Shown piece by piece: positions 13,873 to 41,399 of a stretch of DNA of 64,000 bases. The notes below the pieces were generated by a model. That model saw only the letters and a list, made by a program, of their open reading frames with translations. It made no database searches and was not told the origin of the DNA. How positions within the stretch are numbered: the first letter of the stretch is position 1; every line of letters starts with the position of its first letter. The translations under genes were made by a program, and so were the position numbers. This DNA is from a virus (Duplodnaviria; Caudoviricetes), in the IMG/VR virus record IMGVR_UViG_3300021600_000393, positions 37,133 through 101,132 of that record. One strand, given 5' to 3'.

Positions 13873-16800
13873 TTATATATTCTCAAACGATGCTCCAGTT
13901 GGAGTAATGTAAAAGGTTATGTCAATAAATTCAAGTGACTTAGTTGGTTTGATATAAATCTTACCAGTCAATTGATTTCTATCTAAATCAGCTGCGTCTG
14001 AAGAAACTGTTACACGAAAATCGTATAAACCTCTATCTCTTCTAATCGCGTCTAAAATTGGATTAACCGCGTCTAAGAAATCTTGTCTTACTTTAGCGTC
14101 ATTTTGTTCAAATAATAATCTAACAGAAACTGCTGATATTAATTTACGAGCTTGTAATAACAATCTTCTTACGTTTATTCTATCAAGTGCGGATTCTCTA
14201 ATTTGTAAAGTTTTATTTCCCCAAATAACAGTTCCAACATCAGAAAAAGTTGCAATTGGATTGATTCTACCTTTATATAAAGTATCTCTATCCTCTTGTG
14301 TTAATTTTTTTCTTGCTTTGATAGCGTTTACTAAACCACGTGTATAACCAGCCGCTGCGAACCAAGGGAACGCAATGTTATCGGTTAACGCTAAGTTTCT
14401 TGTAACCTCAGCGGTAGGTGGTAGGTAAATTTGAGTGTTATTAACACTATCTCTAGTTAAAACCCAAGGGTAATAAGTTGCGGTGTAGTTAGAGTCAATT
14501 CCAGTACCTTCTAAATTATCAACCGATTCTTGTGGGTAAATAATATCAGTTGGTTCTCCAACTGTAGGACTAAATAAATTATAATCTGGTGTTGTACAAA
14601 TATATAATGAATCAGCTCTATCAAATTCAATCATTTGAATTGCTCCTTCAACTAAATCAGAATTATTTAAATAATCAATACCAGGAGTCACAAATAAATT
14701 AATATTAACCGCCTCAGGATTAGAAAATGTATTAATACCTAAAAGATAAGCATAATAGTCAGAATTACCATATTCAATTGTGTTGTCACCAACAGTAATT
14801 TGTTTAAACGCTCCCCAACCTGTTGCTGTAGGATATTTAATTGACGGACAAGCTCCTTTTAAATAACCACCTCGACCTAAAACAAATCTATCAGCGTTAG
14901 TTCTATATTCTCTGTAAATATCCCAACCGTCAAAACCTCCTATACAAAGTAAAGTAAATTTACGAGAAAATAATCTATAATATTGGTTTGACTCATTTAC
15001 AGGGTCTGTTGTAAAAGATGATGCTCCAACAAAAAACAAAGGAGTTCCACTTGTAGTGTAATTACTAGATATTGTTAATGCACTTGCGTTAACATCCATA
15101 TGATAACCTCTTGTTTTATACGCCCAATCGTCACCAGTGCTATCTGAACAAACACTAAGAGGTAATTGTTTACCTTTGTATTGTAAGAAATCAGTATCAA
15201 CTCCAACTGAATCAGATATACCTAAATAAGTTCTTCTTACTTTATCACCGTTACTTCTGATTGCGTCATCAGCTCCTGATGCCAAACCAAATGGTGGATT
15301 GTAAACTACTTCCCCAGGAAAATCGTACTTTGTTTTATAAACTGGGAATGGAGGTCTTACACCAGCATATTCTCTATATTGGAAACCTTCAAATCCACAA
15401 GGTAACGCGTCAACCGGAGCGTCATCATTCATTTCAACCATTACTAATTTAGAATTTAATGTGTATTCTCCGTTTTTAGTTCCTATTTTTTTCCCAATAA
15501 ATCCATTATCATTAGGGTTCATATTACAATTTGTAAATTTTTCTAACACAACTGGTGCTTCGTCACTATCAAAGAAATCTCTAATTAATACGTCAAAATT
15601 ACCATTACCAAATGATATATTTGCAATTGAAATTTTAATTTCAGTGTTAGCAGCGTCACCATCAGCAATTGTTGTAAATTTAAATAAATTAGAAACTTTA
15701 TTTCCTCTTAATTCAGAAACTACCCAAGGTGATGTTGGTGATTGATATTGTTCTAAATACCAACCAATACTTGTTGGGTCTGAACCTTGTCTTGCATCTG
15801 GTAAATAAGTTAAGTTAGAACTTACACCTCTAATATATCCTTTTCTATAACCATATGTTAATAATGCCCCAAATTGTTCTTCAACAAATAAAGGTACCGT
15901 AGTCCTCGGTTTTGAAAAATTAGACGCTCCAAAAACTTTTGATACATAATTAACATCAGAAATTTGAAAAGAAGTTTCAAAAAATAAATTATTACCGTCT
16001 TTATCAGTAATATTAACACCAAAAGTTGAAAAAGGATTTTTAGATGCTCCAGAATAAGAACTTGAAAAATCTAAAGTCATTCCAGTTTGTCCGGTAACTT
16101 GATATACTGCCCCAGTATCGGTAGAGTAAGTCGCTAACCCTCTTGACCTCATTGTTGCAATAACTAAATCATCATAATTTAAGTAAGGTGTTCCTGAATA
16201 AATGTATAATGTTCCATTAACAGTTCCACTAAAGTTAGTAATTATAATTCCGTTATTATTATTTCCAGTATTACCTGTCACACAAGGATTACAAGGGTCA
16301 CTAATTTCAACATTTACTGTCCAACTTTCAGTTACCGTAGTATCTTCTGACACTAAAACGTATGTTTTTGTTAAACCGGTAAAATTAACGGTACTTCCGG
16401 TAGAGTATTGTGTTACAGAATTAAGAGTTACCCCTGTTGTACAAGCACTAAATGTAACCGTTAAAGCGGATAAATCATTAATAGTTGTTGCTGAAGGAAG
16501 ACAAAATGAAATAGTATTTGTGTTGTGGTTAATATTACCACTATAAGTACTACCACTAAGAGCGGATGATGCTCCACTAACTGAAAACGAATAAAACGTA
16601 GCACAATTTGATGAAGTGGATGTTTGAGTTAAACCTGAAATATAATTATAAAACGAATAACCGCTATATGTACCATTACCATTATTATCAAATAATGCAT
16701 AATACCAAGGGTCGTTATTTGGGTCATTAAAATTAGCATTTCCTGAATTAACATAATCTAAATTAAAGACATTTGTTGACGCTGTATAACCACTTAATGA

Positions 16801-17457
16801 ATTATAATCGGTTTGAGGTATAACACCAAAATATTTTATAGAATAGTTCTCAGTATTGTTATTAGATATTACACCATAAATTTGATTTTTTAAATCTGAA
16901 CTTAATGTTGATGTTGTACCGTTAAATTGTTGATAAGTAGAATTTAAGTCTTCATTTAATAACCAAGGAAATGTTTCTGTAAAATCTACCGAAGTAACAT
17001 TATCATTATTCCCTGTAAAAGAAACTGAATAAGCGTATTCTTCATATTCAACACAACTTTCAACACAATCAACTGTTGATGAACTAAAACAGTTTTGACC
17101 AACAGTAGTTGTATCAACGTTTGCAACAGTCGTTATACTCCAAGATGGACCGGCGTCATAACCAGATAAACCCAAAACTCTCGTAACAAATAATTGGTTT
17201 GATTGTTGTAAATAAGATTTAGCTATATAAGCAGCTTCATATTTAGGGATTTGTGTGTTTATGAATTTTTCGGCGGATGTTCCACCAAAATACGTTGAAA
17301 ATTCATCAAAATTTGTGATGAAAATAGGTTCAAAAGCGGGACCTTTTAATGTCTCACCAACAATACCTAAAGTTGTAACGCCAACACTTTGCGCAACAAA
17401 ACTCAAATCAACTTCCGAGGTATATACTCCCGGGGACACGAATACTTTATTTGCCAT
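13873..17457 (-). CDS. Contractile tail sheath protein (T4 gp18-like) with large Ser/Thr/Gly-rich and Ig-like insertions
   Basis: N-terminal SPGVYTSEVDLS; C-terminal PWFAAAGYTRG, LYKGRINPI, IWGNKTLQ..SALDRINVRRLL, IYIKPTKSLEFI. Confidence 0.95.
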   Translation of the reverse strand: MANKVFVSPGVYTSEVDLSFVAQSVGVTTLGIVGETLKGPAFEPIFITNFDEFSTYFGGTSAEKFINTQIPKYEAAYIAKSYLQQSNQLFVTRVLGLSGYDAGPSWSITTVANVDTTTVGQNCFSSSTVDCVESCVEYEEYAYSVSFTGNNDNVTSVDFTETFPWLLNEDLNSTYQQFNGTTSTLSSDLKNQIYGVISNNNTENYSIKYFGVIPQTDYNSLSGYTASTNVFNLDYVNSGNANFNDPNNDPWYYALFDNNGNGTYSGYSFYNYISGLTQTSTSSNCATFYSFSVSGASSALSGSTYSGNINHNTNTISFCLPSATTINDLSALTVTFSACTTGVTLNSVTQYSTGSTVNFTGLTKTYVLVSEDTTVTESWTVNVEISDPCNPCVTGNTGNNNNGIIITNFSGTVNGTLYIYSGTPYLNYDDLVIATMRSRGLATYSTDTGAVYQVTGQTGMTLDFSSSYSGASKNPFSTFGVNITDKDGNNLFFETSFQISDVNYVSKVFGASNFSKPRTTVPLFVEEQFGALLTYGYRKGYIRGVSSNLTYLPDARQGSDPTSIGWYLEQYQSPTSPWVVSELRGNKVSNLFKFTTIADGDAANTEIKISIANISFGNGNFDVLIRDFFDSDEAPVVLEKFTNCNMNPNDNGFIGKKIGTKNGEYTLNSKLVMVEMNDDAPVDALPCGFEGFQYREYAGVRPPFPVYKTKYDFPGEVVYNPPFGLASGADDAIRSNGDKVRRTYLGISDSVGVDTDFLQYKGKQLPLSVCSDSTGDDWAYKTRGYHMDVNASALTISSNYTTSGTPLFFVGASSFTTDPVNESNQYYRLFSRKFTLLCIGGFDGWDIYREYRTNADRFVLGRGGYLKGACPSIKYPTATGWGAFKQITVGDNTIEYGNSDYYAYLLGINTFSNPEAVNINLFVTPGIDYLNNSDLVEGAIQMIEFDRADSLYICTTPDYNLFSPTVGEPTDIIYPQESVDNLEGTGIDSNYTATYYPWVLTRDSVNNTQIYLPPTAEVTRNLALTDNIAFPWFAAAGYTRGLVNAIKARKKLTQEDRDTLYKGRINPIATFSDVGTVIWGNKTLQIRESALDRINVRRLLLQARKLISAVSVRLLFEQNDAKVRQDFLDAVNPILDAIRRDRGLYDFRVTVSSDAADLDRNQLTGKIYIKPTKSLEFIDITFYITPTGASFENI

Positions 17458-17519
17458 TATTAATTTTTTTTAATTAGTTATTTATTTTCTAATAAATATT
17501 TCATTAAATAGCAAAAAAC

Positions 17520-17572
17520 TTGACTTTATGATAAGTATTAATAAATTAGGTAGACTTTTTTCTGCCTTTTTT
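17520..17572 (+). promoter_or_regulatory. Putative sigma70-like promoter followed by a hairpin/operator upstream of the RHH gene
   Basis: TTGACT-N16-TAAATT, then AGGTAGA-CTTTTT-TCTGCCT and a T run. Confidence 0.35.
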
Positions 17573-17580
17573 ATCTTACC

Positions 17581-17748
17581 TTGCAAAACGAGTCAAAAAT
17601 AAAGAATTTAAAAATTTCAAAAGACGCTCATGAAATTTTAAAAACCTATTGCAACAAAAAAGGAATTAAAATTTATAGATTTATTGAAAAATTAATTTTA
17701 GAAAAATGTAAAAATAAAAAAGATATTTATGGGGATAATTTAGATTAA
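17581..17748 (+). CDS. Ribbon-helix-helix-like DNA-binding protein (55 aa, TTG start; not in ORF track)
   Basis: MQNESKIKNLKISKDAHEILKTYCNKKGIKIYRFIEKLILEKC...; beta strand KNLKI followed by helix-G-helix. Confidence 0.65.
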   Translation: MQNESKIKNLKISKDAHEILKTYCNKKGIKIYRFIEKLILEKCKNKKDIYGDNLD

Positions 17749-18777: not shown

Positions 18778-19379
18778 TACATATCTTTTTTAACCCAATT
18801 ATAAAATAATTCAGATATTTCTTTTGGGTTTGTTATATTTTCATTTTTTAACATCATTCTAACTTGACTAATTAACCCAACAAAATGTTCTGGTGGTACA
18901 TTTTTATAAAAACCCTCAAAATTTGCTTCGTTTGGTTTAATTATTCCAAATTTAACAAATTCTCTTAATTTTCTTTTTGCAAATTCATCGGCAACGGTTT
19001 CTATTTTTTTCATAAAAATTGCGGCTTCAATCAAACTAATATTACCTAAATAGCACTCATACATTTTTTCAGCACCGTATTTTTTAAATTGATATTGATG
19101 AGCGATTTCGTGAAATAATATAAATAAAAAATTTGGTAAACTATTGTTAAATATCGTTGAATTTAATATTACCCTATCATCTAAAGAAACTCCCATCCCC
19201 ATTTTTAATGGTTCAACTGTTATCTTTTGACATTCAGAATTTTCTATAAATTTATTTATTTTTTCAATTTGGGTATCATCAATATTAAAATTATCTTTAA
19301 TTTGTGACAAAAAAATGTCAATACCTAAAGTTTCTTCGGTAATTAAATTATATTGTATTTTATTAATTTTATATCTCAT
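18777..19379 (-). CDS. Zn metallopeptidase, ImmA/IrrE (M78)-like
   Basis: LFHEIAHQYQ (HExxH) and downstream ETVADEFA. Confidence 0.65.
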   Translation of the reverse strand: MRYKINKIQYNLITEETLGIDIFLSQIKDNFNIDDTQIEKINKFIENSECQKITVEPLKMGMGVSLDDRVILNSTIFNNSLPNFLFILFHEIAHQYQFKKYGAEKMYECYLGNISLIEAAIFMKKIETVADEFAKRKLREFVKFGIIKPNEANFEGFYKNVPPEHFVGLISQVRMMLKNENITNPKEISELFYNWVKKDM

Positions 19380-20307: not shown

Positions 20308-20346
20308 TATTGATAAATATTAGAATAAGCCTTATTTTTCATTTAA

Positions 20347-22104: not shown

Positions 22105-22150
22105 GGTACCTGTTATTAACAATTACAGTCCCTTGTAATATTTATTGTAA

Positions 22151-23701
22151 ATGGAAAAATTAAAATTAAAATCACAAAAGATTGAAAAACAAATCTTATT
22201 AGCCGAAAAACAAGACGTTAAAGAAACCCTTATTACCGAAATGAAAAAAATCGGTATTGAAAAATTACCCTATTCGTACACTTCTTTAAAAAAATTTATT
22301 GACTCTGAAACAATGTCAATACATTATAATCGTCATTATAAAAATTATGTTGAAAAATTAAACAAACTAATTTCTAAAAAAGATTATCCAGATATGGAAC
22401 TCGAAGAAATTGTTAAATCTATTAGTCGATTTAATAAAGGGGTTAGAAATAATGCAGGTGGGGCGTTTAATCACGCTTTGTTTTGGAAAATGTTGTCTCC
22501 AACAACTCAAGAACCTAATGGTGAAGTATTAGAAAGAATTAAAAAAGATTTTGGAACTTATAAAAGTTTTGTTAATATGTTTCAAAACGCAGCAAAAGAA
22601 AGATTTGGTTCTGGATGGGTTTGGTTGGTTTTAACTAAAAATAACGTATTAAAAATACTTTCGACTGAAAACCAAGACAATCCGTTAATGAATGTTGTGA
22701 AAGATGGCGGATACCCAATATTAGGGTTAGATTTATGGGAACACGCGTATTATTTAAAATATCGAAATAAAAGAGACGAATACGTTACTAATTTTTGGAA
22801 ATGTGTAAATTGGGAATTTGTTAATTCACTTTATAATTCAAGATTAAAGAAAAAAATTAATGAAACAGAAAATTTACGTAAACTTATTTCTGAAACAAAA
22901 TCAAATACTTGTAGTTGGCCAGAGGTTGAAGCGATTAGGTTTATTTTTAATAACAATCCAAATATTAAATATATGTACAGAACGGCTATAGATATAATTT
23001 TATCTGAAGTTTTTCCTGAACATTATTATAAAGAAAATGAGTATGAACCAAACAGTTTATATGGAATTTATGATTTAGAACAACCTGGAAGGTCAGGAAT
23101 AAATAAATTAAACACTAATTATAACACTTTTTGTACCTTACTTAAAGATATAAATCTTGTTATTACCCGTGAAAAAGGAAGTGACCCAATAAATAAAATA
23201 AATATTGTTGGTGTTAAACCATTTGAACAAATATTACAAACTAAAAAATTTATTGAATATTTAAACGAATATAAATTTCGAATCTTTTCAAGAAATTCAG
23301 AAACATTTAATAATTTAATGGTAATTTTAAAAGAAAAAGACTCTATTGGTGAAAAAAGAGAATCGTCAGTTGTCAAAAAACTTAAAGAAATTTATGGCGA
23401 AGACAACGTAATAAAAGTAGGTGAATTAGGTAGTAAAAGAGACACTAAAGATGGTGTGGATTGTGAAATAATTATAAATGGGGAGGTATTAACAGCTCAA
23501 ATAAAACCATTTTTAAAAGCTGAAGATATCGGGGAAAATTTTAAAATGCACAATACTGGAAATGTAAAACCTTACAAAACAAATTTTATTATTTTTTCAA
23601 CAATGAGTAATAAAATAATGGTATTTAAAAATGATGATATCACAATTAAAAATGGTAATTATATAATACCAAAGAAAAATTTAATTCATAATATTTATTA
23701 G
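22151..23701 (+). CDS. Mn/Fe superoxide dismutase fused to a C-terminal PD-(D/E)XK-like domain
   Basis: HYNRHYKNYV, NNAGGAFNHALFW, FGSGWVWL, NQDNP, DLWEHAYYL; C-terminus GEKRE...DTKDGVDCEI...AQIKP. Confidence 0.85.
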   Translation: MEKLKLKSQKIEKQILLAEKQDVKETLITEMKKIGIEKLPYSYTSLKKFIDSETMSIHYNRHYKNYVEKLNKLISKKDYPDMELEEIVKSISRFNKGVRNNAGGAFNHALFWKMLSPTTQEPNGEVLERIKKDFGTYKSFVNMFQNAAKERFGSGWVWLVLTKNNVLKILSTENQDNPLMNVVKDGGYPILGLDLWEHAYYLKYRNKRDEYVTNFWKCVNWEFVNSLYNSRLKKKINETENLRKLISETKSNTCSWPEVEAIRFIFNNNPNIKYMYRTAIDIILSEVFPEHYYKENEYEPNSLYGIYDLEQPGRSGINKLNTNYNTFCTLLKDINLVITREKGSDPINKINIVGVKPFEQILQTKKFIEYLNEYKFRIFSRNSETFNNLMVILKEKDSIGEKRESSVVKKLKEIYGEDNVIKVGELGSKRDTKDGVDCEIIINGEVLTAQIKPFLKAEDIGENFKMHNTGNVKPYKTNFIIFSTMSNKIMVFKNDDITIKNGNYIIPKKNLIHNIY

Positions 23702-23702
23702 T

Positions 23703-24842: not shown

Positions 24843-24886
24843 TCGAGAGTTTTCAATAACTTAAATATTTATACAATAAATACTTT

Positions 24887-30057: not shown

Positions 30058-31131
30058 TTATAAAGGTAATCCTGAAATATATTCTGATGTTAGGTCAACC
30101 CAACCACCGTTAACGCTATATTTCCAAAATTGGTCAATGTTAACATACGATTCATATCCATAATCAGTATTAATAAACACACCACTAGCAAAAAATATTT
30201 CAAGAGAAGGTCTTGATGCTAAAATACTATTTGTTGCTCCAGATAAATTAGTTTTTAAATAATCAAATGCGTTTTCTTTAATTTTATTTGTCGCAAAAAC
30301 CATTCTTTTATTATATATTTGTTCTGTTGTTCCTGTAAACCCTGTTAATGTACTACTAAACGGCCACAAAATATCAATTAATTTATAAAACTCATAATCA
30401 CCGGAACCTGAATAAGTACTAAATGTTGGTGTACTAGCACTCCAAGTTGTTAATACCTCACCTATTGCTCCGGCTACGGCTCCACAAGTATTGTCAGTAA
30501 TACTATCTGTTTTATCTTTTCTAAACATTCTACCCGCACGACCATCTATTGTAACACCAATGTGTGGAGTACTTGTAATAAATAAAGTTCCGCCACTTGT
30601 AATGTGACTAGCCCATGCTCCTAATCCAACAGTTCCAACAAATGGAAACCCAGCCAAACCTCCTGACATAAACGGACCAAGAAATGTGTTCATAGAATTT
30701 GGAAATTGTCCAATATTATCAACTCCCGTAAAAACAGGTCCATCAACATCATCAGAACATATACCTTCGGCATAAATTATATCATTAGCAGAATAACCTT
30801 TACTAGTAATAAAACCTTTTGTGTATTCCCCCCAAGATTCAGATAATGTTGAGGATGAATACGATAAACCACCTTCCGGATTAACAACACTTCTAACAGT
30901 AGTTGTATAACCAGATTGTAATGGTGCTGGTTCTGCAACATTAAAATTATAAATGTAATTATATTCTAATACATTAATATTGTAACTACCATACGGATAT
31001 GAAGTTAAGTTATTAAATGGTATTGTTTTGATACCTAAATTTTGTAATGTTCCACCTGACGCTGGTGTAAAGGTAACCGCGGCGGTTTTACCTATTAAAT
31101 TATTACTGATAAATCTTAAACCTATTGACAT
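30058..31131 (-). CDS. LCIB/C-type (theta-like) carbonic anhydrase with an N-terminal virion-type module
   Basis: ICSDD, GPFMSGGLAGFPFVG.VG..AWASH, PHIGV..DG..G...R, TCGA; putative Cys/His/Cys Zn ligands present. Confidence 0.75.
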   Translation of the reverse strand: MSIGLRFISNNLIGKTAAVTFTPASGGTLQNLGIKTIPFNNLTSYPYGSYNINVLEYNYIYNFNVAEPAPLQSGYTTTVRSVVNPEGGLSYSSSTLSESWGEYTKGFITSKGYSANDIIYAEGICSDDVDGPVFTGVDNIGQFPNSMNTFLGPFMSGGLAGFPFVGTVGLGAWASHITSGGTLFITSTPHIGVTIDGRAGRMFRKDKTDSITDNTCGAVAGAIGEVLTTWSASTPTFSTYSGSGDYEFYKLIDILWPFSSTLTGFTGTTEQIYNKRMVFATNKIKENAFDYLKTNLSGATNSILASRPSLEIFFASGVFINTDYGYESYVNIDQFWKYSVNGGWVDLTSEYISGLPL

Positions 31132-31167
31132 ACTTATTTTTTTTGTTTTGTTTATAAATATCCGTAA

Positions 31168-31803: not shown

Positions 31804-31893
31804 CTAAATTTTATTTATAAATACCTGAGAAAACAAAAATATTAACATCCGATATTGGATGAATTTAATTAAAAAAAAGTAATAAAGATTAAA

Positions 31894-33570
31894 TTAACAT
31901 TCTTTTCTTAATTCCGCCGCGTAATGATGAAATCTATGATGCTCAGTAGGTGTTAATAATAATATTCCGGGATTTATTAGACCTTTTACTGTTTCTTGAT
32001 AAGCGTAGGACATTAATGTTTGTTCAAACGGAGATTGGAATTTTGTTTCCAAATAACATCTAAAATTACCTTCTTTTGTTAAAAGAATTGGCCAGTTACA
32101 TAAATAAATATCACCTGATGCGTATGATAATCCTTTATGTGATTTAATATTTTTGAATACCGTATTAGGAGCATTTGGGTCTAATCCTTGAACAGGTAAT
32201 TTTGGTTTTTCAGGCCAATTTACCTCCCTAAATGATTGTGGGGTATTATACCAAGCAAATTGGATATCGTTAGACCCATAAAATTCAGTAAAGTTTAATT
32301 TTAAAAAATCAAAATTTTCTTTCTTTAAAATCTCTAATGATTTTTGATATAGGTTAGGAACATATCTATTGAAACCATTTCTACAAACCTCGCCTTTTTT
32401 TGAATAAAACTCCATGTCATCTTCGTAAAAATAATAGGCCGATAAATCTGTTGTATCAAAATGTTCGGCAATATAAACTCGGCCTCTAACAATACCAAGA
32501 TTTTCACCAGTACCAATCCTTTCAAACCCATATTCCTCACAAAGTTCTTGATATCTTGGAGTTGTTGTTAAATCAGTAGAATTGTCCAGTAAAAATTTTT
32601 TAGGTTTAAGTATAAAATCTTTATCGTATTCTAACATTGATTTAACTAATGTCTCAAATTGATTTGGGCTATTAAAAGTAATAACATAAAGCCCTACTTT
32701 ATTTACGTCTAAATTATTATTAACTAACATTTTACCTTCTGACTTAACTTTTAATTCATCATTTTTTAAATCTTCAAAAAACTTACCAATTAATCCGTTT
32801 TGTTCAATTTCAAAATAATTTATTATGTCTGGATGTTTATAACACATAATAGAAAAAAGACTTTCTTCAGTTCCCATGTACCCTTCATCTAATGTTGACG
32901 ATAATAATCCATAATAAATTGAATTAATATCTGATATAGTATGTTTAGGACCACCAAAAAATCCACCTCTAGCGACTTTATCAACTTTATTACCGGCAAT
33001 TGAATTTAATTTATTAAAATCAAATCCGTGAATTTCTGTTTCCGCTTGATATGGAAAAGTTATAAAAGAAAATTTTGAAATATACTTAGAAAGTTTATTT
33101 AAAACCTTATCATGTGTAAAGTAACCAGGGTGAACAGTATTTGTTAAACCGGCATCAATCCAAAACATGTATTCGGAATCAAATTTGTCTAAAATTTTAG
33201 CGTCATGAATTAAAAATATTTTACTCATGACTAATGGATTGTACATTTCTAATTTAGCTTGAGTAGACTCACCTAACCAACCCGATTTATTGTACCAATC
33301 AGGGTTTGTTCTAATAGTTTGTATTTTATCAAAATAATTGTTTGATTTAAACCAAGACACATCTCTTAAAATAAATTGAGTGTTTGATGGTGAACGTCTT
33401 TCCGATACAAATTTTTCTAATTCAGAATCCCCAAAAATTATTAAATTATTATCAATTTTTAATAATTGGTCAAACTTTTCTAAATAATGTGAAAATGTTC
33501 TAGACCAACCTTCAGTAAGTTCATCTCTTTTAATATTCCAAAGACCTGTAACTAATGTAATATTATCCAT
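31894..33570 (-). CDS. HtrL/YibB (WlaTC)-family glycosyltransferase fused to a GT-A domain
   Basis: ITLVTGLWNI, YNPLVMSK, YMFWIDAG, GGFFGG, GTEE; second domain LLDNS...YYFYEDD. Confidence 0.75.
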   Translation of the reverse strand: MDNITLVTGLWNIKRDELTEGWSRTFSHYLEKFDQLLKIDNNLIIFGDSELEKFVSERRSPSNTQFILRDVSWFKSNNYFDKIQTIRTNPDWYNKSGWLGESTQAKLEMYNPLVMSKIFLIHDAKILDKFDSEYMFWIDAGLTNTVHPGYFTHDKVLNKLSKYISKFSFITFPYQAETEIHGFDFNKLNSIAGNKVDKVARGGFFGGPKHTISDINSIYYGLLSSTLDEGYMGTEESLFSIMCYKHPDIINYFEIEQNGLIGKFFEDLKNDELKVKSEGKMLVNNNLDVNKVGLYVITFNSPNQFETLVKSMLEYDKDFILKPKKFLLDNSTDLTTTPRYQELCEEYGFERIGTGENLGIVRGRVYIAEHFDTTDLSAYYFYEDDMEFYSKKGEVCRNGFNRYVPNLYQKSLEILKKENFDFLKLNFTEFYGSNDIQFAWYNTPQSFREVNWPEKPKLPVQGLDPNAPNTVFKNIKSHKGLSYASGDIYLCNWPILLTKEGNFRCYLETKFQSPFEQTLMSYAYQETVKGLINPGILLLTPTEHHRFHHYAAELRKEC

Positions 33571-33572
33571 AA

Positions 33573-34199
33573 TTATTTTAATTTACAAACCCAAACCGCT
33601 TGAGAAAATTTATTTTGATTATATGACTTAAGATTATTTTCAATCACAGATTGTTCAATATCTGACTCAGTAATTTCACACCAGTTCCAGATTTTATCTT
33701 TAATCTCGGTTTCATAAACTTCTTTACTAAACGAATAATCATGGGCTAAAATATAATCGCCTTCTTTAATTAATTTTGAAAATATTTTAAACTCACCAAT
33801 TTTCCAACCTCCATCACAAAGAACAATTGTAACACCGTCTTGTTTTACAAAATCAACAACCTCTTGGTTAACACCACTCCAATCCTTATTAAAGATATTT
33901 TCAACTCTAACATCAATCCCTTTTTCTATCATTTGGTGGTACCAGGGTCTTTCAGAAATGTCATAAGACAAAATCTTGGTATTTAATTCTAATTCATCAG
34001 TAATAATTTTTAAAAATTCTGTAAACCCTCCTAAAGCAGTTCCAATTTCTAAAATTCTATTTGGTTTAACTTCCGAAATAAAATCATAAAAAACTTGGTA
34101 AGCGTTATGACTTTGTTGTGCCGTATGTCCTTTAAATGCGGACAAACTATCGTTTTGTTCAAGGTTAGTAAATCTTGTTATATTTTCTTGTATATTCAT
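33573..34199 (-). CDS. Class I SAM methyltransferase (CmcI/Methyltransf_24-like)
   Basis: ILEIGTALGG, LCDGG, ILAHD. Confidence 0.75.
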   Translation of the reverse strand: MNIQENITRFTNLEQNDSLSAFKGHTAQQSHNAYQVFYDFISEVKPNRILEIGTALGGFTEFLKIITDELELNTKILSYDISERPWYHQMIEKGIDVRVENIFNKDWSGVNQEVVDFVKQDGVTIVLCDGGWKIGEFKIFSKLIKEGDYILAHDYSFSKEVYETEIKDKIWNWCEITESDIEQSVIENNLKSYNQNKFSQAVWVCKLK

Positions 34200-34201
34200 A
34201 A

Positions 34202-34915
34202 TTAAAATCTTATATGTAAATTTCCTGATTTATCGTGGAATTCAAAACAGTTTGGAATAAACCCCCTAAAACTGTTCCAATCCCAATTCATTTCGGCCTC
34301 TAAAGCCGATACTCCAATGTCAAACCCATCTGGGTAATTTCTAATATTATTATGTATTGAATACCATAAAAATTCTTCCCATCTTCTAACAAAATATCTA
34401 AATTTCCAATTGTTTCTGAATACCATAAATTGTTCATTTACAACGTGAGCTTCATCCCATTTTGTATGTTCAAACACATGATAATCATATAACTTTCTAT
34501 CAAAAAAACAATCATTCATATTTTTTTTATGGTCCCCAACTTTTGATGGTCGTTCAAATAAAAAATCTAAATTATTTTTTTCCATATGATTAAATAAATT
34601 AAATAATTTATCTTCACTGAAATTATCTATCATTCTCCAATCGGCGTCATTGTAAATAATATAATCATATCCTTTATCTAAACAATATTTCAAGGATAAA
34701 ACTTTTAAATTTAAAAAAAATGAAAAACCTGGATTTCCGTCATCATATCGGTCAAGTTTAAAAAGGTCTAAATTTACTTTTGGACCCGCTTCGCAAATTT
34801 CATTAGTGGTAATGTTAAAATCTGCGGAACATTTTTCACTGTATTTAGTATAACATTCTGAGGCATTTTTTACATATGACTCTCCAACTGCTAGTGTGGT
34901 AAAAATATATTTCAT
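34202..34915 (-). CDS. GT-A glycosyltransferase (GT6-like)
   Basis: FTTLAVG..Y, K..SLK, YIIYNDAD (DxD). Confidence 0.55.
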   Translation of the reverse strand: MKYIFTTLAVGESYVKNASECYTKYSEKCSADFNITTNEICEAGPKVNLDLFKLDRYDDGNPGFSFFLNLKVLSLKYCLDKGYDYIIYNDADWRMIDNFSEDKLFNLFNHMEKNNLDFLFERPSKVGDHKKNMNDCFFDRKLYDYHVFEHTKWDEAHVVNEQFMVFRNNWKFRYFVRRWEEFLWYSIHNNIRNYPDGFDIGVSALEAEMNWDWNSFRGFIPNCFEFHDKSGNLHIRF

Positions 34916-35898
34916 TAGGTTTCAATAATTTTTTCTAAAAAATTTAGTGTGTAATCAAAGTCATAATAATCAGGTAATTTGTTGTCTACAAAAATTGGAG
35001 ATTCAATATACTTTCTATATAATGTTTCGTTATTATCAATTTCTTTAACTAAAGATAAAAAGTCATTTAAATCAGTAAAGTCGTGTAAATTAATAAAACT
35101 TTCAGGATTAAAACCTTCTTCTAAAATATGTTTATTACCAAAAAATATTGGAATTGCCCCACTAAAGAACGCATGATATATTTTTTCTTGTAAAATATAA
35201 TCTGTGTTTGTATAATGAATTGACATGTTAAACTTGTATTTTTGAAACAGACCTATCTTTTCTCTATAAGTTAAACCATCAATTCTACCAAGATACAAGT
35301 GATTTTGCCATTGGTACTTATTTAATGTCTCGTCACCATATAGTGTTTGTCTCCAAGGACCTGACGAACTAACCATTTTATATTCAGATAATTTATCAAA
35401 AACTTTGCTCCTAAAATCATTATTTGATGCTTGAGTTATTGAACAAAAACCTGTATTTCTTTTTGATATCACATTAAAATTTCTTTTTTCTGTTAACCAA
35501 TTTAAAGGACTATCAACTAATCTTGATTCATCATACAAAGTCCAAACATCAAAAACACCAGATGGTTGTCTTAAGTATTTGTCATGTTCAAATTTATTAT
35601 AACCTAGCGCCCATTGATTTTCATTTGCCAAAATTGGACTTCTAAAATCAGCAACTTCACCTGAAACATATAAAAATTTTTTATTTTTATCTGATTGATT
35701 ATGGTTTGTTGGTAATTTACCTGTATACGTATCAATTTGATTTTCATTATAATTTAAATCAGAATGGATTACAATATCAGGATTTATTGGGTCAATAACT
35801 ACATTATATTTTTTTGATAAAATAAATTTAAAATAATTCATCCAACTATGTTGACCAACATTTGGAAATCCTTGTCTAGTTATTCTAATTGTTTTCAT
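34915..35898 (-). CDS. GT10 alpha-1,3-fucosyltransferase-like
   Basis: NPDIVI, FCSI..SN..FR, KYKFNMSI..T..YI.EKI..AF.SGAIPIFFG. Confidence 0.8.
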   Translation of the reverse strand: MKTIRITRQGFPNVGQHSWMNYFKFILSKKYNVVIDPINPDIVIHSDLNYNENQIDTYTGKLPTNHNQSDKNKKFLYVSGEVADFRSPILANENQWALGYNKFEHDKYLRQPSGVFDVWTLYDESRLVDSPLNWLTEKRNFNVISKRNTGFCSITQASNNDFRSKVFDKLSEYKMVSSSGPWRQTLYGDETLNKYQWQNHLYLGRIDGLTYREKIGLFQKYKFNMSIHYTNTDYILQEKIYHAFFSGAIPIFFGNKHILEEGFNPESFINLHDFTDLNDFLSLVKEIDNNETLYRKYIESPIFVDNKLPDYYDFDYTLNFLEKIIET

Positions 35899-36589
35899 TT
35901 AAAATTTGGGTCAATTTAAGAGTGTTATCAGTATATGGTCCATTATCATGTATAATATACGCTTCCAAATTTAAAAGTGAAACTTCCTTACCTATTATCT
36001 TAACACAATCTTTTGTGTCTAATGTGCTAAAAAAGAAATCACGTTCTTGGTCAATAATAATATCGTCATTAAGTAGATATTGAATTGTCCATCTACCTTG
36101 GTCATCAATACCTGTCTGGTATTCTTTTTCAATAATATCTTTTAAGTGAGATACGATTTTATCGGTGTATCCAAAATAAGTACCAGAATTTAAATACTTA
36201 CTATCATTAATGGCTCGTTTGTTATCATATAGATGAGTATAGTTTGTTGGTGGCCATAAACCTTTTTCCGAGCCCATAATAAGACTACAATTTAAAGATT
36301 TAAACTTTTCTATAATACCTTCAGGAGATTTAATAAAGTTGGTGTCTGTGGCATCTAAAAATAGAATATAATCATATTTCCCAACAATGTTTGATTCAAT
36401 ATATTCTAACACTTTTACTGTTTTGTAAAAAAACAATTTATCATAATAAGAACCATTTGTTATTAACCCTGAATTTCTTACAACATGAATATCTTCAGGT
36501 GAAAAATACTTTAAAGCGTTCTTATAAAAAGATGGTTCATAATGTTCGGGGTAATCAAACAAAGAAGTTATTAAAGCAATATTTTTCAT
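35885..36589 (-). CDS. PLOD/LH3-type glycosyltransferase domain protein (start re-assigned to MKNIAL at 36589)
   Basis: ILFLDATD, SEKGLWP, YLNSGTYFG, DDQGRWT, IIIDQ..FF. Confidence 0.75.
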   Translation of the reverse strand: MKNIALITSLFDYPEHYEPSFYKNALKYFSPEDIHVVRNSGLITNGSYYDKLFFYKTVKVLEYIESNIVGKYDYILFLDATDTNFIKSPEGIIEKFKSLNCSLIMGSEKGLWPPTNYTHLYDNKRAINDSKYLNSGTYFGYTDKIVSHLKDIIEKEYQTGIDDQGRWTIQYLLNDDIIIDQERDFFFSTLDTKDCVKIIGKEVSLLNLEAYIIHDNGPYTDNTLKLTQILNENN

Positions 36590-36590
36590 A

Positions 36591-37229
36591 TTAATTAGTT
36601 GATATGTCTTTATAAAATTCATTTATTAAATCCGCGTCACTATAAAATATTTTATCTTCCGCAAAAAATTTATAAGGTATTTCGTTTTCCCAAAATATAA
36701 CAAGTTCTTTACCTAATGAATTTTTTAATAATTCATTTGAATCTTCAAAAACTTCAATAAATGAAAATTTTGGATATATACAGATTTTATTATCTTTCAC
36801 ATCAATTATTTGTTTATGGTGAGCATTACCTCTATATTTATTATCCCACAAAAAAGAAAATTCGTCAAATTTAGAAGGGATTGCAATATATCCTTTATTA
36901 GATATTTTCGGTAATAAATCTAACAATTGAATTGGGGTTATAACGTCTTCTAAAGTGTGAGAACAAATACTATAGTCAAATTTACCGTTTTGTTCTACAT
37001 AATTTAATAATTCAGACCAAGTATTTTTATTTTGAATATTAAAATCAAAAAATTTTACATCTTCTTTTTCAATTTTAACAATATCAGCAACAAATTTACA
37101 TTCGGGGTACGACCAAAATTGTAAAGACGCTCCAATATCAATTGTTTTATATCCATTATCTGAAATTATTTTTTTTACGTCACCGATTAAGTCTTTAACC
37201 GAATTATTATATTGCCAATGTGTTATCAT
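36591..37229 (-). CDS. SAM methyltransferase (Methyltransf_11/23-like)
   Basis: TIDIGAS, FDYSICSHTLED, GYIAIP. Confidence 0.75.
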   Translation of the reverse strand: MITHWQYNNSVKDLIGDVKKIISDNGYKTIDIGASLQFWSYPECKFVADIVKIEKEDVKFFDFNIQNKNTWSELLNYVEQNGKFDYSICSHTLEDVITPIQLLDLLPKISNKGYIAIPSKFDEFSFLWDNKYRGNAHHKQIIDVKDNKICIYPKFSFIEVFEDSNELLKNSLGKELVIFWENEIPYKFFAEDKIFYSDADLINEFYKDISTN

Positions 37230-37836
37230 ATTTTTTATTTAAGAAAAGTATATCTTGTTGAATTAAGTTGTAAGTCAAAGGGTGATTTATGTTACCAATA
37301 AGTTCAACAGGTTTAAAACCTATTTTATCCATATAATCATAAACAAATTCCTTTGTAGGGGCGTTTTTATTGTATTCAATTAAAGATATTTCCATTAAAA
37401 TACCTTTAGATTCTTTAATAATATCTAATCCTCCGTTTATAATATCAATTTCTGAACCTTGAACATCAATCTTAATTAAATCAAATGTTTGTTTATTTAA
37501 AATTTTTGAAAGTATTTGTGTTTGTTTTTTTTCTATAAGAATTTGGTCGTCATCATAAAAAGAGGTATTTTCACGATAAATTGAATTACCAGTGCATCTT
37601 GGTTCATTTTTTCTAATATAAAAATCAACTTCTTTTTCATAATCACTTAATAAACAGATTGAATAATCAACATTTAAAATTTCCAATGCCGGTTCGCAAT
37701 TTTCACTACCTTCTATTAAGTAATAATAAGCGTTGGGGAATATCAATTTACATTCATTATAAAATTGACCAACATTTGCGCCAATATCTAAAATTGAATT
37801 AGGGGTAAAATATTTTGTTATTAAATTTAAATTCAT
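37207..37836 (-). CDS. FkbM-family methyltransferase
   Basis: ILDIGANVGQF, LIKIDVQGSE..II.GG. Confidence 0.9.
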   Translation of the reverse strand: MNLNLITKYFTPNSILDIGANVGQFYNECKLIFPNAYYYLIEGSENCEPALEILNVDYSICLLSDYEKEVDFYIRKNEPRCTGNSIYRENTSFYDDDQILIEKKQTQILSKILNKQTFDLIKIDVQGSEIDIINGGLDIIKESKGILMEISLIEYNKNAPTKEFVYDYMDKIGFKPVELIGNINHPLTYNLIQQDILFLNKKYDNTLAI

Positions 37837-37839
37837 TTT

Positions 37840-39090
37840 TTATAAATTACCTGTTATTCTGTCACACCACCCTTTTGATTCTGAATGAGGCCAAACTACC
37901 CAATATTTTGGTTTTTGAGTTGTTGGAAACTCTCTCCATACTTTACAGTAATTATCTGGGTCGTTCATCATACGTTTAATTTCATTTATATCGGCATCTT
38001 TTCTAAAAATTGTTTCGTCTTTTTCAGTATGAAAAGCAACTACCCAAAAGTCATAATCTTTTTCAGGGACTTGATGAAATCCAATATCTATACAATGTTT
38101 AAAAATACTTGAAAAACTATTAATCCACTCTTCTTCTGTTTCGTAAATAGTTGGGTTTGGTGGGTAATTTTTATCTAACGTGTGTTGTTGTACCGCTCTT
38201 TTTGAAAATAATAAACCTGAATAAATTTCATAATCTTTTAAACTTCTTTCAGTCCCAAATCCATATTTACTAAAATCCATTGTAATTTCTTCACCATCCA
38301 TACCAAAAAGTTGTCTGTTTTTTTTATGTGATGTACTATTTTTTATTCCCCATTCTTTATCATCGTCCCATTGTTTTGTTCTTCCTTTTCTTGTGTATTC
38401 ATGCCAAATAGCAACTTTATGTGGGTGAAATAAATCGTATCCGTGAGTAAAAGCTCTAACAGCAATTGAAATTTCTTCACCATGAAAATAAAATTCTGGG
38501 TCATGTTGTACTTCCACAGAAAATTTTCCTAATGTGAAACAGAAATGAGCCGAATAAAATCTAGCAGGTACTGGTTCTTTTAAATCTTGCCATCCTGGGA
38601 TTGATTCTGGTAAGAAAAACACCGCTCCTTCAGGAATAAATCTATCAAACGCCATTCTCCAAGGTTCTCTAACTCTTTGTTCAGGGTCATTTTCAGGATT
38701 AAAAGATGAAACATATCCAGTTAAAAGAGGTTTTTCAAACCCTTTTTTTTGCAATTGTTTAATCATTTTAATAAAAGTTTCGTCCCAATTTTTTTCAAAT
38801 CTCATATGAGAATCGATTTGTAATGTATATTCTTCACCACCATAAAGTTGTTGAACTTGATTTCTTGCCCAACATACCCCTTTTGATTCGGAATATAATA
38901 CATCCGTAACTCTAAATCTTTTATCGTTTTTATATTCATCTAACACATCAAATTTATCATCCGGATGATATTGCCTACAAATACCAATAATTAATTTTTT
39001 TGGATTTTTAGCATTTTCAATCATACTTTTTAAAGTAGGGATTAATTGAGGGTCTCTATAAGACGCAATTTGGACAAAGATGTTATTCAT
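37840..39090 (-). CDS. GT60-family polypeptide alpha-GlcNAc transferase (Gnt1-like)
   Basis: IFVQIASYRDP, SKGVCWAR, LQIDSHMRF..WD, FHGEEISIAVRAFTHGYDLFHP, YGFGTERSL.DYE. Confidence 0.85.
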   Translation of the reverse strand: MNNIFVQIASYRDPQLIPTLKSMIENAKNPKKLIIGICRQYHPDDKFDVLDEYKNDKRFRVTDVLYSESKGVCWARNQVQQLYGGEEYTLQIDSHMRFEKNWDETFIKMIKQLQKKGFEKPLLTGYVSSFNPENDPEQRVREPWRMAFDRFIPEGAVFFLPESIPGWQDLKEPVPARFYSAHFCFTLGKFSVEVQHDPEFYFHGEEISIAVRAFTHGYDLFHPHKVAIWHEYTRKGRTKQWDDDKEWGIKNSTSHKKNRQLFGMDGEEITMDFSKYGFGTERSLKDYEIYSGLLFSKRAVQQHTLDKNYPPNPTIYETEEEWINSFSSIFKHCIDIGFHQVPEKDYDFWVVAFHTEKDETIFRKDADINEIKRMMNDPDNYCKVWREFPTTQKPKYWVVWPHSESKGWCDRITGNL

Positions 39091-39212
39091 GTTTAATAAT
39101 TTTATAAAAATAATAACTAAAAATAGAATAATGTGTACATTTTTAAAAAATTATTTTAAGATAATTTGGTTATAAAAACAACCATTAATTTGACTAAAGG
39201 TGTTGAGGTAGG

Positions 39213-41399
39213 TTATACAATTTGATACGAAAAATCGTTAGTTTTGCATGAATCTATTTCATACGAAAAATCGTCAGTTTCGCATGAGGCTATAAAACAA
39301 TTTGGACAATCAGGGTTAAACATTCTAAATATAGTGTTACTTATTTTAAAATTATGTTTAATTTCTGGTGAAGAAAGAGGTTCAACGTACATTCTAAATT
39401 GTGAAATACCCCCATCAAAAGACCCTGCAAAATTTTGTTCAATTAATATATTAGTACTTAACCCACTTAAAGTTGTACCACTTAAATCCGAATTCGGTAA
39501 ACATTCCGGGTCTTGAAAAAATGGTGAAGACAATCCGGTTAAATTTTCTCTAAGACCTTGAGTTCCTCCACCCCAAGAGATATTAAAAGGGACTCCAAGT
39601 TGTTTTTCTTTTTCAGTATTTAATGCTCTTGGTATAATTTCTTCAAAATCTTCAATCGTATGAAAAAGTTTACCGTTTACGTAAAATTTTAATTTTCCTT
39701 TTCTATATTTTTTATCAATCAACCATCTTTCATTTAGATTAACAATCTCAATTTTTTCTGGAATTTTACCATCTACCTCAGTATAAGGAACTGTTATTAA
39801 TGATTGACTATTATTAACTAAAGATTCTAAAAATTCTTTTTTAGTAATATTATCTAAACCTCCTTTATATTTTAAATCACAAGTTTCAAACCAAGAATAT
39901 CTTTCCCAAACAGCGTTAAATTGGAACCAATGTTCTTGTTCAAGAAAATAAGAATTAATTGATTCACAATAATCATAAATTCTATTTGTTGAACAATATT
40001 CATTAATAGTATATCCAGTACTATATGTTATTCCAGTTGTTGAACAAGTCCCTGTTGTAATACAATCACCAGTAAATCTTAAAACTTTAACACAAATTTT
40101 AGGGTTTTTAACGTCGCCTGATAATCTAAACGACATAGCATTTGATATGGAATCATATAGTGGGTCAGTTTCGCACGTATTTTCAATTGAAGTGAAACCA
40201 GTATAACATTGGTCACAAACGGGGCAATCCGGAGTATGTGTTGAACAAGTTGGAGTACATAAAGGGGTTGTAGTCGTACATGAGGTTGGGGTTGAACTAG
40301 GGGTTGGAGTTGGGGTCGGTGTTAAATCAACTTCAGACTCACATATATGTGTTTTACATTCCCATCCGCAAGTTTCGCACGGATTATTTTGACAATCACA
40401 CCCACAATTGACTTCTATTGATTTATTAACGTCTCCATTACAAACTGGACACCCATAACTTAAATGAGAGTCATGAACCCCATCCTTAGACCTTTGAGGG
40501 TAAACAAATAAACATCTTGAGTTTGTTATATTTCTGTTACAACATGCACATGTTTCAAAATTTTCCATTCCTTCGGTTACTCTAGTATAACCTGTGTAAC
40601 ATTTTGGATTTCCACTAGCATAATGATAGAATTTATTTTCGGCTCTTGTTCCAAAATAAAAAAAAGTATTTTTATTTTCTGGGTAAATTTCATTTAATGT
40701 GGTTTGTCCGGTAGATGGGAAATATTCATCAATAAGTCTTGGTTTTAAAATCATTTCAACGGTCCAACCTTTATTGACTCTTTCCGGAAAAATTTCATAA
40801 TCATGACCAAATAATTTATAAAACCCTTGATAAAACCCACCATATAAATCATGATAATGTCCTCCATAAGGGGTGGTTTTACTTACAACTTCATACAAAA
40901 CAGTTTTATCAAAACCAGAAAAAGAACTATTTTGACTGGTATATCCTGTTATTTGAAATAATTTAAGTTTTTTATCATATGATAATCTATTAAACATTAC
41001 TTCATCGGATAACACCCCTTTAGTAAACGTGATAGATTTCCCAGTTATTGAATTAACTAATCCGTTATCAATACCGGTTAACCCAATATCACATACGGTT
41101 GTTGATGTCATACAATTCAAATCATCATTATTAATGTTATAAAAATTTTTAGAAATTAAAACATTATTTAAATTGTACACACCATAAGTTAACGTTTGCA
41201 TTTGACAGGACCCGCTATAATTAATATCAAAGTAAATTGGTAATTTATTACCGTATGTTTGAGCGATTAAATAAGGAGAAAAAACAACTTCTTGATTAAA
41301 CCCAGTTTCATCTGAGGTTAATGACATGTCATATAGTTCCAATTTTAACTTTGGAAACAAATTTGAATTAACGTACTGATTGATATTTGAGTATGCCAT
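39213..41399 (-). CDS. Virion protein with split LamG/ConA-like domain, Cys-rich insert and PT-repeat linker (start re-assigned to MAYSNIN at 41399)
   Basis: WTVEMILKP, GKLKFYVNGKL, FDGGISQFRMY.EPLS..EI; TPTPTPTPSSTPT; late motif just upstream of 41399. Confidence 0.65.
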   Translation of the reverse strand: MAYSNINQYVNSNLFPKLKLELYDMSLTSDETGFNQEVVFSPYLIAQTYGNKLPIYFDINYSGSCQMQTLTYGVYNLNNVLISKNFYNINNDDLNCMTSTTVCDIGLTGIDNGLVNSITGKSITFTKGVLSDEVMFNRLSYDKKLKLFQITGYTSQNSSFSGFDKTVLYEVVSKTTPYGGHYHDLYGGFYQGFYKLFGHDYEIFPERVNKGWTVEMILKPRLIDEYFPSTGQTTLNEIYPENKNTFFYFGTRAENKFYHYASGNPKCYTGYTRVTEGMENFETCACCNRNITNSRCLFVYPQRSKDGVHDSHLSYGCPVCNGDVNKSIEVNCGCDCQNNPCETCGWECKTHICESEVDLTPTPTPTPSSTPTSCTTTTPLCTPTCSTHTPDCPVCDQCYTGFTSIENTCETDPLYDSISNAMSFRLSGDVKNPKICVKVLRFTGDCITTGTCSTTGITYSTGYTINEYCSTNRIYDYCESINSYFLEQEHWFQFNAVWERYSWFETCDLKYKGGLDNITKKEFLESLVNNSQSLITVPYTEVDGKIPEKIEIVNLNERWLIDKKYRKGKLKFYVNGKLFHTIEDFEEIIPRALNTEKEKQLGVPFNISWGGGTQGLRENLTGLSSPFFQDPECLPNSDLSGTTLSGLSTNILIEQNFAGSFDGGISQFRMYVEPLSSPEIKHNFKISNTIFRMFNPDCPNCFIASCETDDFSYEIDSCKTNDFSYQIV
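39225..39287. repeat. 36-bp-period coding duplication at the C-terminus
   Basis: atacgaaaaatcgt(t/c)agttt(t/c)gcatga twice; encodes SC(E/K)T(D/N)DFSY. Confidence 0.8.

Follow-up and report, generated by a model that had tools for sequence, protein, structure and literature searches.

The window analysed here is a stretch of 64,000 nucleotides from an uncultured lake phage (bases 37133-101132 of one viral contig, G000, of 101,132 bp), in which a short protein word, [ST]G.[ST] (Ser or Thr, Gly, any residue, Ser or Thr), recurs in the tail sheath, in a lectin-like protein and in a carbonic anhydrase, in the same window as genes for sugar transfer. The first-pass annotation had taken this word for a candidate signal for protein glycosylation by phage-encoded enzymes. 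We tentatively favour a different reading, in which the word is a structural signature of modules on the tail exterior. GC content is 26-31%. The contractile tail is T4-like, with a sheath, a gp19-like tube and a baseplate hub, and gp25/gp6-like wedge proteins are encoded directly upstream of the window. Among named phages, the closest sheath is that of Microcystis phage Mel-JY01 (31% identity); closer relatives are found in public viral contigs (at least 660 stretches, the best 80 with best-segment identities of 55-81%), some of which span 165-322 kb. The features on which the analysis turns are the following.

2..3898, minus strand: C-terminal 1299 residues of a 2306-residue tail-module protein that continues beyond the window; 5 copies of the word in this part
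12348..12836, minus strand: tail tube, gp19-like; 0 copies (0.18 expected)
13873..17457, minus strand: tail sheath, 1194 residues (Pfam Phage_sheath_1C and Phage_sheath_1; PHROG 23); 13 copies
15802..17151, minus strand: beta-rich insertion of the sheath, residues 103-552 (AlphaFold2 model); 12 of the 13 sheath copies
30058..31131, minus strand: LCIB-type beta carbonic anhydrase with phage-specific N- and C-terminal extensions (Pfam LCIB_C_CA, residues 99-334); 6 copies
37840..39090, minus strand: GT60-family glycosyltransferase (Pfam GlcNAc, PF11397, E 1.4e-73; PHROG 24687, E 2.6e-172), adjoining the LamG-like gene
39213..41399, minus strand: LamG-like protein (concanavalin-type lectin fold), 728 residues (Laminin_G_3 match via a homologue); 10 copies
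40281..40322, minus strand: Thr-Pro linker TPTPTPTPSSTPTS within the LamG-like protein; similar runs recur in homologues
Contig G000 1231-5427 (locus L127), outside the window: 1398-residue fibre protein with SprB repeats and (ITPT)n/TPTP tracts; 17 copies

Enrichment and exact form of the word

Contig-wide counts cover 75 open reading frames (ORFs; 31,438 residues), and the expected values come from 2000 whole-protein shuffles per protein and from local shuffles in windows of 15-60 residues. Four genomes served for comparison: G003, a complete 322-kb relative, and the phages XacN1, T4 and Mel-JY01. The hand counts of the first-pass annotation were all exact: the twelve sheath tetrapeptides are found at residues 222-472 in the order in which it listed them, and there are 10 copies in the LamG-like protein, 6 in the carbonic anhydrase (LTGFTGTT and LSGAT among them), 1 in the DNA polymerase and 0 in the tube. 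One further copy, at the C-terminus, brings the sheath to 13, against 3.6 expected by whole-protein shuffle (p 0.0005) and 4.0-4.4 by local shuffle in 40- and 20-residue windows. The LamG-like protein has 10 against 1.6 (p 0.0005; 1.6-1.8 by local shuffle), and the carbonic anhydrase 6 against 1.85 (p 0.007; 1.9-2.1 by local shuffle). In the tail-module protein at 2..3898 the 5 copies compare with 1.8 expected (p 0.037), and the whole 2306-residue protein has 7 against 3.3-3.8 (p 0.04-0.08).

Over the whole contig the word occurs 94 times against 49.4 expected (z 6.2-6.6), and the z score is still 6.3 when residues are shuffled within 15-residue windows. The excess survives control for Ser, Thr and Gly composition, both whole-protein and local, and an artefact of composition or low complexity is ruled out by the two kinds of shuffle. 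The remaining 11 orderings of two Ser/Thr, one Gly and one free residue give counts of 33-62, none of them enriched. Of the 94 copies, 73 are concentrated in eight proteins; the other 67 ORFs have 21, with ~25 expected. That the word is not a DNA repeat, as had been claimed, is borne out: 73 copies in frame compare with 0-8 in each of the five other frames, and the codons are mixed, which rules out a DNA-level repeat or an out-of-frame signal. In a gapped-word scan made without a preset word (5 x 8000 = 40,000 three-residue words), TG.T came first after the Thr-Pro repeat words, with 39 copies against 14.1 (P 3.8e-8; ~1.5e-3 after correction).

Four of the eight motif-rich proteins are encoded outside the window, on the downstream side of the baseplate genes; these have 410 residues (9 copies against 1.3), 689 residues (6 against 1.2), 1019 residues (5 against 2) and 1398 residues (17 against 7.5). 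The view that outer virion proteins are saturated with the word holds for the sheath; the LamG-like protein and the carbonic anhydrase are putative virion proteins only, and two large tail proteins show no enrichment (4217-9115, 2 against 3.5; 9151-11166, 0 against 1.05). The further copies reported for the hub and for the protein at 63369 do not reach significance (1 against 0.34 and 2 against 0.67, the latter with p 0.14). The contrast that had been drawn with the tube and the polymerase is correct in its counts of 0 and 1 but carries no weight, chance giving 0.18 and 0.66. The N-x-S/T sequon is not enriched across the contig (342 against 366 expected).

A sharper form of the word is hydrophobic-[ST]-G-x-T, found 42 times in the contig against 8.8 expected (4.8-fold, z 12). 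Among 72 sites in the eight proteins, the residue before the first Ser/Thr (position -1, the Ser/Thr being position 0) is hydrophobic in 67% against a background of 34%, in line with what had been noticed by eye, and polar or charged in 8% against 29%, while position +3 is Thr in 56 sites and Ser in 16. Variants with a residue other than Ser/Thr give 1.0-fold at +3 and 0.85-1.0-fold at position 0, a polar residue at -1 gives 0.7-0.8-fold, and other spacings give 1.0-1.5-fold; Ala is tolerated in place of Gly (2.1-2.7-fold).

The enrichment is replicated in G003 (z 5.8-9.3), where hydrophobic-[ST]-G-x-T occurs 69 times against 24.9 (2.8-fold). Seven tail-side proteins of G003 hold 58 of its 110 copies of hydrophobic-[ST]-G-x-[ST], with 9.5 expected; its major capsid protein has 3 against 1.6, and neither the capsid protein nor the head module is enriched. 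Judged from the sequences, hydrophobic-[Ser/Thr]-[Gly, sometimes Ala]-x-[Thr more than Ser] is a real, selected word of five residues, which is cooperative, hydroxyl-specific, clade-specific and confined to tail-side proteins. Literature on phage GT60, virion glycosylation and glycosylated sheaths yielded no description of it.

Some copies fall in structural repeats. A 2276-residue fibre of G003 (L161:9004-15834) has 54 copies of the word against 13.9 expected, with the repeat units 'YLPLSGGTVTGxT' and 'FTGGTVSGATIFT', the 'LPLSGGTVTG' part of which we take to resemble coliphage fibre repeats. This fibre weakly matches fibre gp28 of cyanophage P-SCSP1u (8i4m, E 0.038), and tblastn of its repeat against named phages gave only two weak matches, each to a tail fibre gene (E 0.4 and 1). 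The Pfam tail-fibre repeat PF03406 was also tried and has no match in G000 or G003 at E up to 10, and a search of the literature with the fibre peptide words gave nothing relevant among the matches listed. In the 1398-residue fibre protein of the contig the SprB repeat PF13573 is found in three stretches (E 6.5e-10), into which copies of the TGGTTPYYYS type fall; few of the 94 copies are so explained.

Conservation and structural setting

The word persists in three protein families. The sheath family (55 distinct sequences, the query and 54 homologues) has 4-15 copies per member and the carbonic anhydrase family (121 sequences) 2-9, with a mean of 5.7; in the LamG family, surveyed at 46 loci of which six have no usable ORF, enrichment at p<0.03 holds for 29 distinct homologous ORFs out of 30. 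Columns in which the motif is kept in at least half of the sequences number 8 in the sheath, against 0-3 for other arrangements, and 6 in the carbonic anhydrase, against 0-2; these six are mostly outside the part alignable to solved LCIB structures. The motif columns are kept across 40% sequence divergence and their neighbours are invariant, often aromatic or hydrophobic. A sheath example reads Y55/55, S37 T15, G55, Y43, S55, F52, and a carbonic anhydrase example L121/121, S108, G121, x, T120. At some columns Asn or Asp replaces Ser/Thr (e.g. S30 N21 D4). The invariant aromatic and hydrophobic neighbours resemble core structural elements, which suggests partial burial.

The statement that the word occurs in unrelated folds is supported in so far as the motif-rich proteins have no detectable homology to one another (none by BLAST; hhalign probability 0.1 for sheath versus LamG). 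Paralogy of these proteins was considered and discarded, as neither BLAST nor profile comparison gave any. The LamG-like protein itself has no Pfam match; its G003 homologue matches Laminin_G_3 (E 8.4e-15), an Atlas lookup gives the same LamG lead, and no solved structural relative of the family was found. Its residues ~280-480 are Cys-rich with many CxxC-like pairs, and C284, C286, C296, C446, C452 and C478 are invariant in 22 aligned homologues. The carbonic anhydrase has ~98 extra N-terminal and ~100 extra C-terminal residues; 249 homologues were found at E<=1e-5, and the 120 listed are all full-length (336-363 residues) and all carry LCIB_C_CA.

The sheath was modelled with AlphaFold2 from 29 close homologues. 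In the insertion (residues 103-552) the predicted local distance difference test score (pLDDT), taken in 10-residue blocks, is 69-92 over most of the length, with dips to 44 and 57, and 69-89 at the motif sites. The conserved sheath core has pLDDT <50 while the variable insertion is confident, the reverse of the usual pattern. Foldseek pairs parts of the insertion with small beta-sandwich domains from surface proteins of Bacteroides (3owr, E 5.7e-4; chain 8a9y_G of a levan utilisome, TM score 0.74). Solved relatives of the sheath match in the C-terminal core only, and an Atlas lookup of the insertion gave no match.

Secondary structure assigned by DSSP at the 12 insertion copies gave a mixed picture. 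The Ser/Thr and Gly are in coil in 7 of the 12, and position +3 is in a strand in 8 (46% being the baseline of the region). In the model the +3 residue lies at most one residue from a predicted strand start in 6 of 12 copies (baseline 26%), and position 0 lies at, or at most two residues after, a predicted strand end in 2 of 12 (baseline 25%). The six residues upstream of the word show raised beta propensity, by a measure that is partly circular.

The SprB repeats and the Bacteroides-like folds of the sheath insertion hint at a Bacteroidota host. A passage of PMC12619734 describes a 'moraphage' lineage, a group of large freshwater phages whose hosts are predicted to be Bacteroidota and which has four core groups of transferases.

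Sugar genes, Thr-Pro linkers and readings of the word

Besides the GT60 gene, the window has two blocks of sugar genes and a conserved neighbour of the LamG-like gene (GT, glycosyltransferase).

31894..37836, minus strand: genes downstream of GT60, namely HtrL/YibB, CmcI-type and FkbM methyltransferases, a GT10, a PLOD-type GT and two unknowns (Pfam)
41449-42279, plus strand: 276-residue protein of no known family, divergent beside the LamG-like gene (45/46 related loci)
44330..58418, plus strand: second sugar cluster, namely a PHROG 7162 GT, GT2_5+GT4, GT2, GT10, WbuC cupin, GT25, a methyltransferase, a DegT fragment, GDP-mannose 4,6-dehydratase and a further GT2 (Pfam/PHROG), with exonuclease, dUTPase and PhoH interspersed

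Other genes of the window are replication genes, the exonuclease, dUTPase and PhoH just named and, at 22151-23701 on the plus strand, an Fe/Mn superoxide dismutase (residues 37-226) fused to a C-terminal part of ~290 residues without family assignment. The Pfam scan covers 54 window ORFs. Ten genes have glycosyltransferase-family matches (HtrL/YibB, two GT10, PLOD-type GT, GT60, PHROG 7162, GT2_5+GT4, two GT2 and GT25), so that the earlier figure of about a dozen glycosyltransferases was close. Several methyltransferases (CmcI-type, FkbM and Methyltransf_11 class) stand in the same blocks. No membrane segments are found in the transferases, except for the hydrophobic N-terminus of GT25. The combination of GDP-mannose 4,6-dehydratase, two GT10 of the fucosyltransferase type, a WbuC cupin and methyltransferases recalls the methylated deoxy-hexose glycans of chloroviruses.

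The GT60 match (PF11397) scores 248.8 bits against a cut-off of 21. Of 10 large clade contigs, 8 have GT60, and the other two are 40% and 56% complete; among 417 related viral stretches, the best 80, all of them from the clade, have a GT60 with 74-99% identity. By its family match and distribution it is a near-core gene of the clade, and this near-universality leaves no within-clade contrast of the word against GT60. Outside the clade, among named phages, GT60 was found in XacN1 and three relatives only. In G003 a co-directional block runs in the order LamG-like gene, two Thr-Pro-rich genes, the 2276-residue fibre, four small genes, GT60 and transferase/methyltransferase fusions. Among the LamG loci, GT60 lies within 10 kb of the LamG-like gene in only 4 of 46, and the homologue of the 276-residue protein (orf276) stands beside it in 45 of 46, the tighter link of the two.

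The strongest words of the contig are TPT, PTP and ITPT, from the (ITPT)n tracts of the SprB-repeat fibre and from TPTPTPTPSSTPTS of the LamG-like protein. TPT/PTP rank first among enriched words in this contig, in G003 and in XacN1, and are not among the top words of T4 and Mel-JY01. Thr-Pro runs are distributed as follows.

This contig, GT60 present: 2/75 ORFs
G003, GT60 present: 9/314 ORFs
XacN1, GT60 present: 13/320 ORFs
T4, GT60 absent: 0/110 ORFs
Mel-JY01, GT60 absent: 0/221 ORFs

A Thr-rich, mucin-like candidate acceptor thus coexists with GT60 in the three GT60-bearing genomes examined, which represent two independent lineages only. Characterised GT60 enzymes transfer GlcNAc onto Thr of mucin-like stretches, according to passages of PMC9472816 and PMC3769586, and the comparison suggests that the Thr-Pro linkers fit GT60 better than the Gly-containing word does; with two lineages this is a lead, not a result. 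Six of the 13 XacN1 ORFs with Thr-Pro runs (ORF232-237) go without mention in the main text of PMC5852040. Found together with GT60 in two unrelated lineages of phages, the Thr-Pro linkers merit first experimental attention.

Enriched words are also found in the control phages, so that an enriched word alone is no sign of modification. The same scan gives CP.C and G.IY in T4, which are known zinc and homing-endonuclease motifs, and in the GT60-free Mel-JY01 (loci L171-L181) it gives SGS (65 against 22, 2.9-fold, in 27 proteins) as well as LCP and GFH.

We read the word, tentatively and as the most plausible of several possibilities, as a structural signature of beta-sandwich and fibre modules on the tail exterior, namely the sheath insertion, the fibres, the lectin-like proteins and the extensions of the carbonic anhydrase. 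Going by the sheath model, the hydrophobic residue would end or pack the preceding segment, the Ser/Thr-Gly pair would usually sit in the loop, and the second hydroxyl residue would usually open the next strand. The word may be kept as a stabiliser of this loop-strand junction, in a class of modules that would have spread among tail proteins and diverged past sequence recognition. It need not be modified; should GT60 attach sugar to virion proteins in the first place, the likelier acceptors would be the Thr-Pro linkers within these fibre and lectin-like proteins. We favour this structural reading because the word occupies conserved columns with invariant neighbours, in which the excess largely lies; because of the loop-to-strand placement in the sheath model and the likeness of the insertion to Bacteroides beta-sandwiches; because copies fall in structural repeats (SprB and the G003 fibre units) and Asn or Asp stands at some columns; and because enriched words are common in phage proteomes, XacN1 has GT60 without the word, and Thr-Pro words track GT60. 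A compact marker would then be at hand for a class of surface modules in tail proteins that sequence searches fail to connect, together with a warning that short enriched words beside transferase genes do not prove modification.

Several observations weigh against the structural reading. A purely physical turn motif is expected to be universal, and hydrophobic-[ST]-G-x-T is not enriched in T4 (7 against 6.1), in the GT60-bearing XacN1 (27 against 21.4) or in Mel-JY01 (7 against 9.6). Replacement of either hydroxyl residue by Asn or Asp gives 0.9-1.4-fold, and Val or Ile at +3 gives 0.9-1.2-fold, which is not how ordinary Asx/ST turns or strand positions behave. Traced on the sheath tree, the word arises at 62 columns, against 36-48 for other arrangements, and undergoes 168 changes against 66-127, lasting longer per change; more origins and longer persistence are as expected if the word itself is selected. 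The sheaths of Mel-JY01 and T4 are without it at homologous sites. The structural side is represented by a single model, that of the sheath, in which the copies differ in conformation (2 mid-strand, 1 in a short helix, 2 in a tight turn). Since the motif-rich proteins have no detectable homology, a shared module class is itself something that we infer.

The three control phages without the word and the hydroxyl specificity keep alive a second reading, which we consider possible though doubtful: the word would be the acceptor determinant of phage-encoded cytoplasmic O-glycosylation, in which a soluble transferase (GT60 or another of the ten or so) reads the loop-to-strand element on folded tail proteins, and the remaining transferases and the methyltransferases extend the sugar. 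It would account for a word that is cooperative, with every position needed, and hydroxyl-specific; for its clade restriction, its lack at homologous outgroup sites and its occurrence in non-homologous proteins; and for its more frequent origin and greater persistence on the sheath tree. The transferases are soluble and GT60 is conserved in the clade, the G003 GT60 operon follows on the same strand the LamG-like, Thr-Pro-rich and 54-copy fibre genes, and XacN1, whose GT60 is 48.8% identical, has, according to a passage of PMC5852040, a virion with 'at least two glycoproteins'. The same phage tells against the acceptor reading, in that it has both glycoproteins and a GT60 while the word is not enriched in it. 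Neither the capsid protein nor the head module of G003 is enriched, in contrast to known glycosylated phage and chlorovirus capsids; GT60 is so nearly universal that the clade offers no contrast; the invariant aromatics beside the word suggest partial burial; the C-terminal sheath copy, an exception at the outgroup sites, has a T-G-A core common to T4 and Mel-JY01; and the base rate is low, enriched words being common. A sequon is not our leading reading on account of XacN1, the capsid without enrichment, the resemblance of the neighbours to core elements, and the base rate. Of the argument for glycosylation made by the first-pass annotation, the enrichment beyond composition, the non-homologous carriers and the soluble transferases stand; the word could be linked to no transferase, and XacN1, the only independent GT60-bearing phage examined, and the G003 capsid lack the enrichment.

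In its full form, that the word is the first sequon-like signal for phage-encoded virion glycosylation and that a soluble transferase set, conserved in a clade of large freshwater phages, probably with Bacteroidota hosts, reads it on folded sheath, fibre and lectin-like proteins and coats the tail and not the head with methylated and fucose-type glycans, the proposal strikes us as likewise possible though doubtful. Were it true, phage glycobiology would gain its first predictive signal, by which the glycosylated virion proteins of uncultured large phages, in their hundreds, could be recognised from sequence; short peptides or single domains would serve to test which acceptors a viral GT60-type enzyme set uses; and tails rather than heads would be shielded or made sticky by glycans.

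A reader of the word that is not a glycosyltransferase is improbable in our estimate, be it another modification enzyme, an assembly chaperone or a ligand for which the word is a binding element of the tail surface modules. The hydroxyl specificity and the clade restriction would suit such a reader equally, as would the presence of the word in tail, fibre and lectin-like proteins and not in the head, and the insertion fold resembles Bacteroides glycan-binding surface proteins; the neighbours of the motif-rich genes include no identified kinase, other transferase or dedicated chaperone, and there is no positive pointer to one. A small remainder of probability we assign to none of the readings listed. 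A by-product of composition, low complexity, DNA repeats or selective word reporting is highly improbable, for although the motif-rich regions are rich in Ser, Thr, Gly and Asn, many words can be tried and control phages have enriched words too, the excess persists in local shuffles down to 15 residues (z 6.3), TG.T stands out in the scan (P 3.8e-8), the signal is in-frame only, and it is replicated in G003 and in three families.

Comparison with known systems

Mycobacteriophage virions are O-glycosylated by phage-encoded glycosyltransferases, with glycans at the C-termini of capsid and tail-tube subunits (Freeman et al. 2023, as cited in a passage of PMC12619734). The present phage resembles that system in having its own soluble glycosyltransferases and in that virion proteins are proposed as targets. 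It differs in that the tube has 0 copies, the capsid of the relative is unenriched and the candidate sites lie inside the chains of sheath, fibre and lectin-like proteins.

The glycans of chlorovirus PBCV-1 are N-linked to the capsid protein and contain fucose-type and methylated sugars. Its capsid glycosylation by virus-encoded enzymes is mentioned in a passage of PMC5852040. A comparable virus-encoded cytoplasmic sugar machinery is suggested for the window by the predicted GDP-mannose dehydratase, the two GT10 and the sugar methyltransferases, whereas N-x-S/T is unenriched here and the capsid is not involved.

The autotransporter heptosyltransferases Aah and TibC recognise a structural motif, a strand-loop-strand acceptor in which the modified Ser/Thr is at the loop start, with no sequence consensus (a passage of PMC3835316, citing Charbonneau 2012). 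These enzymes O-glycosylate beta-rich surface proteins in the cytoplasm, and the place of the word in the sheath model, at a predicted passage from loop to strand, may be likened to their acceptor. In contrast, the sequence word is sharp here, and no heptosyltransferase family is among the Pfam matches of the window ORFs.

The GT60 enzymes of Trypanosoma cruzi are UDP-GlcNAc:polypeptide alpha-GlcNAc-transferases of the Golgi that prefer Thr and act on the mucin-like acceptor peptide KPPTTTTTTTTKPP (passages of PMC9472816 and PMC3769586). Their known acceptors are Thr-rich and mucin-like, without the Gly-containing word, and their location is eukaryotic; the predicted protein at 37840-39090 belongs to the same Pfam family, and Thr is preferred at position +3 of the word.

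The Xanthomonas jumbo phage XacN1 has two transferases and at least two virion glycoproteins, as stated in a passage of PMC5852040. The word is unenriched in XacN1, which differs from the present phage in lineage, host and GC content and has only those two transferases; the two phages are alike in GT60, the XacN1 homologue ORF334 being 48.8% identical to the window enzyme, and in the Thr-Pro linkers, which are abundant in XacN1 (13/320 ORFs).

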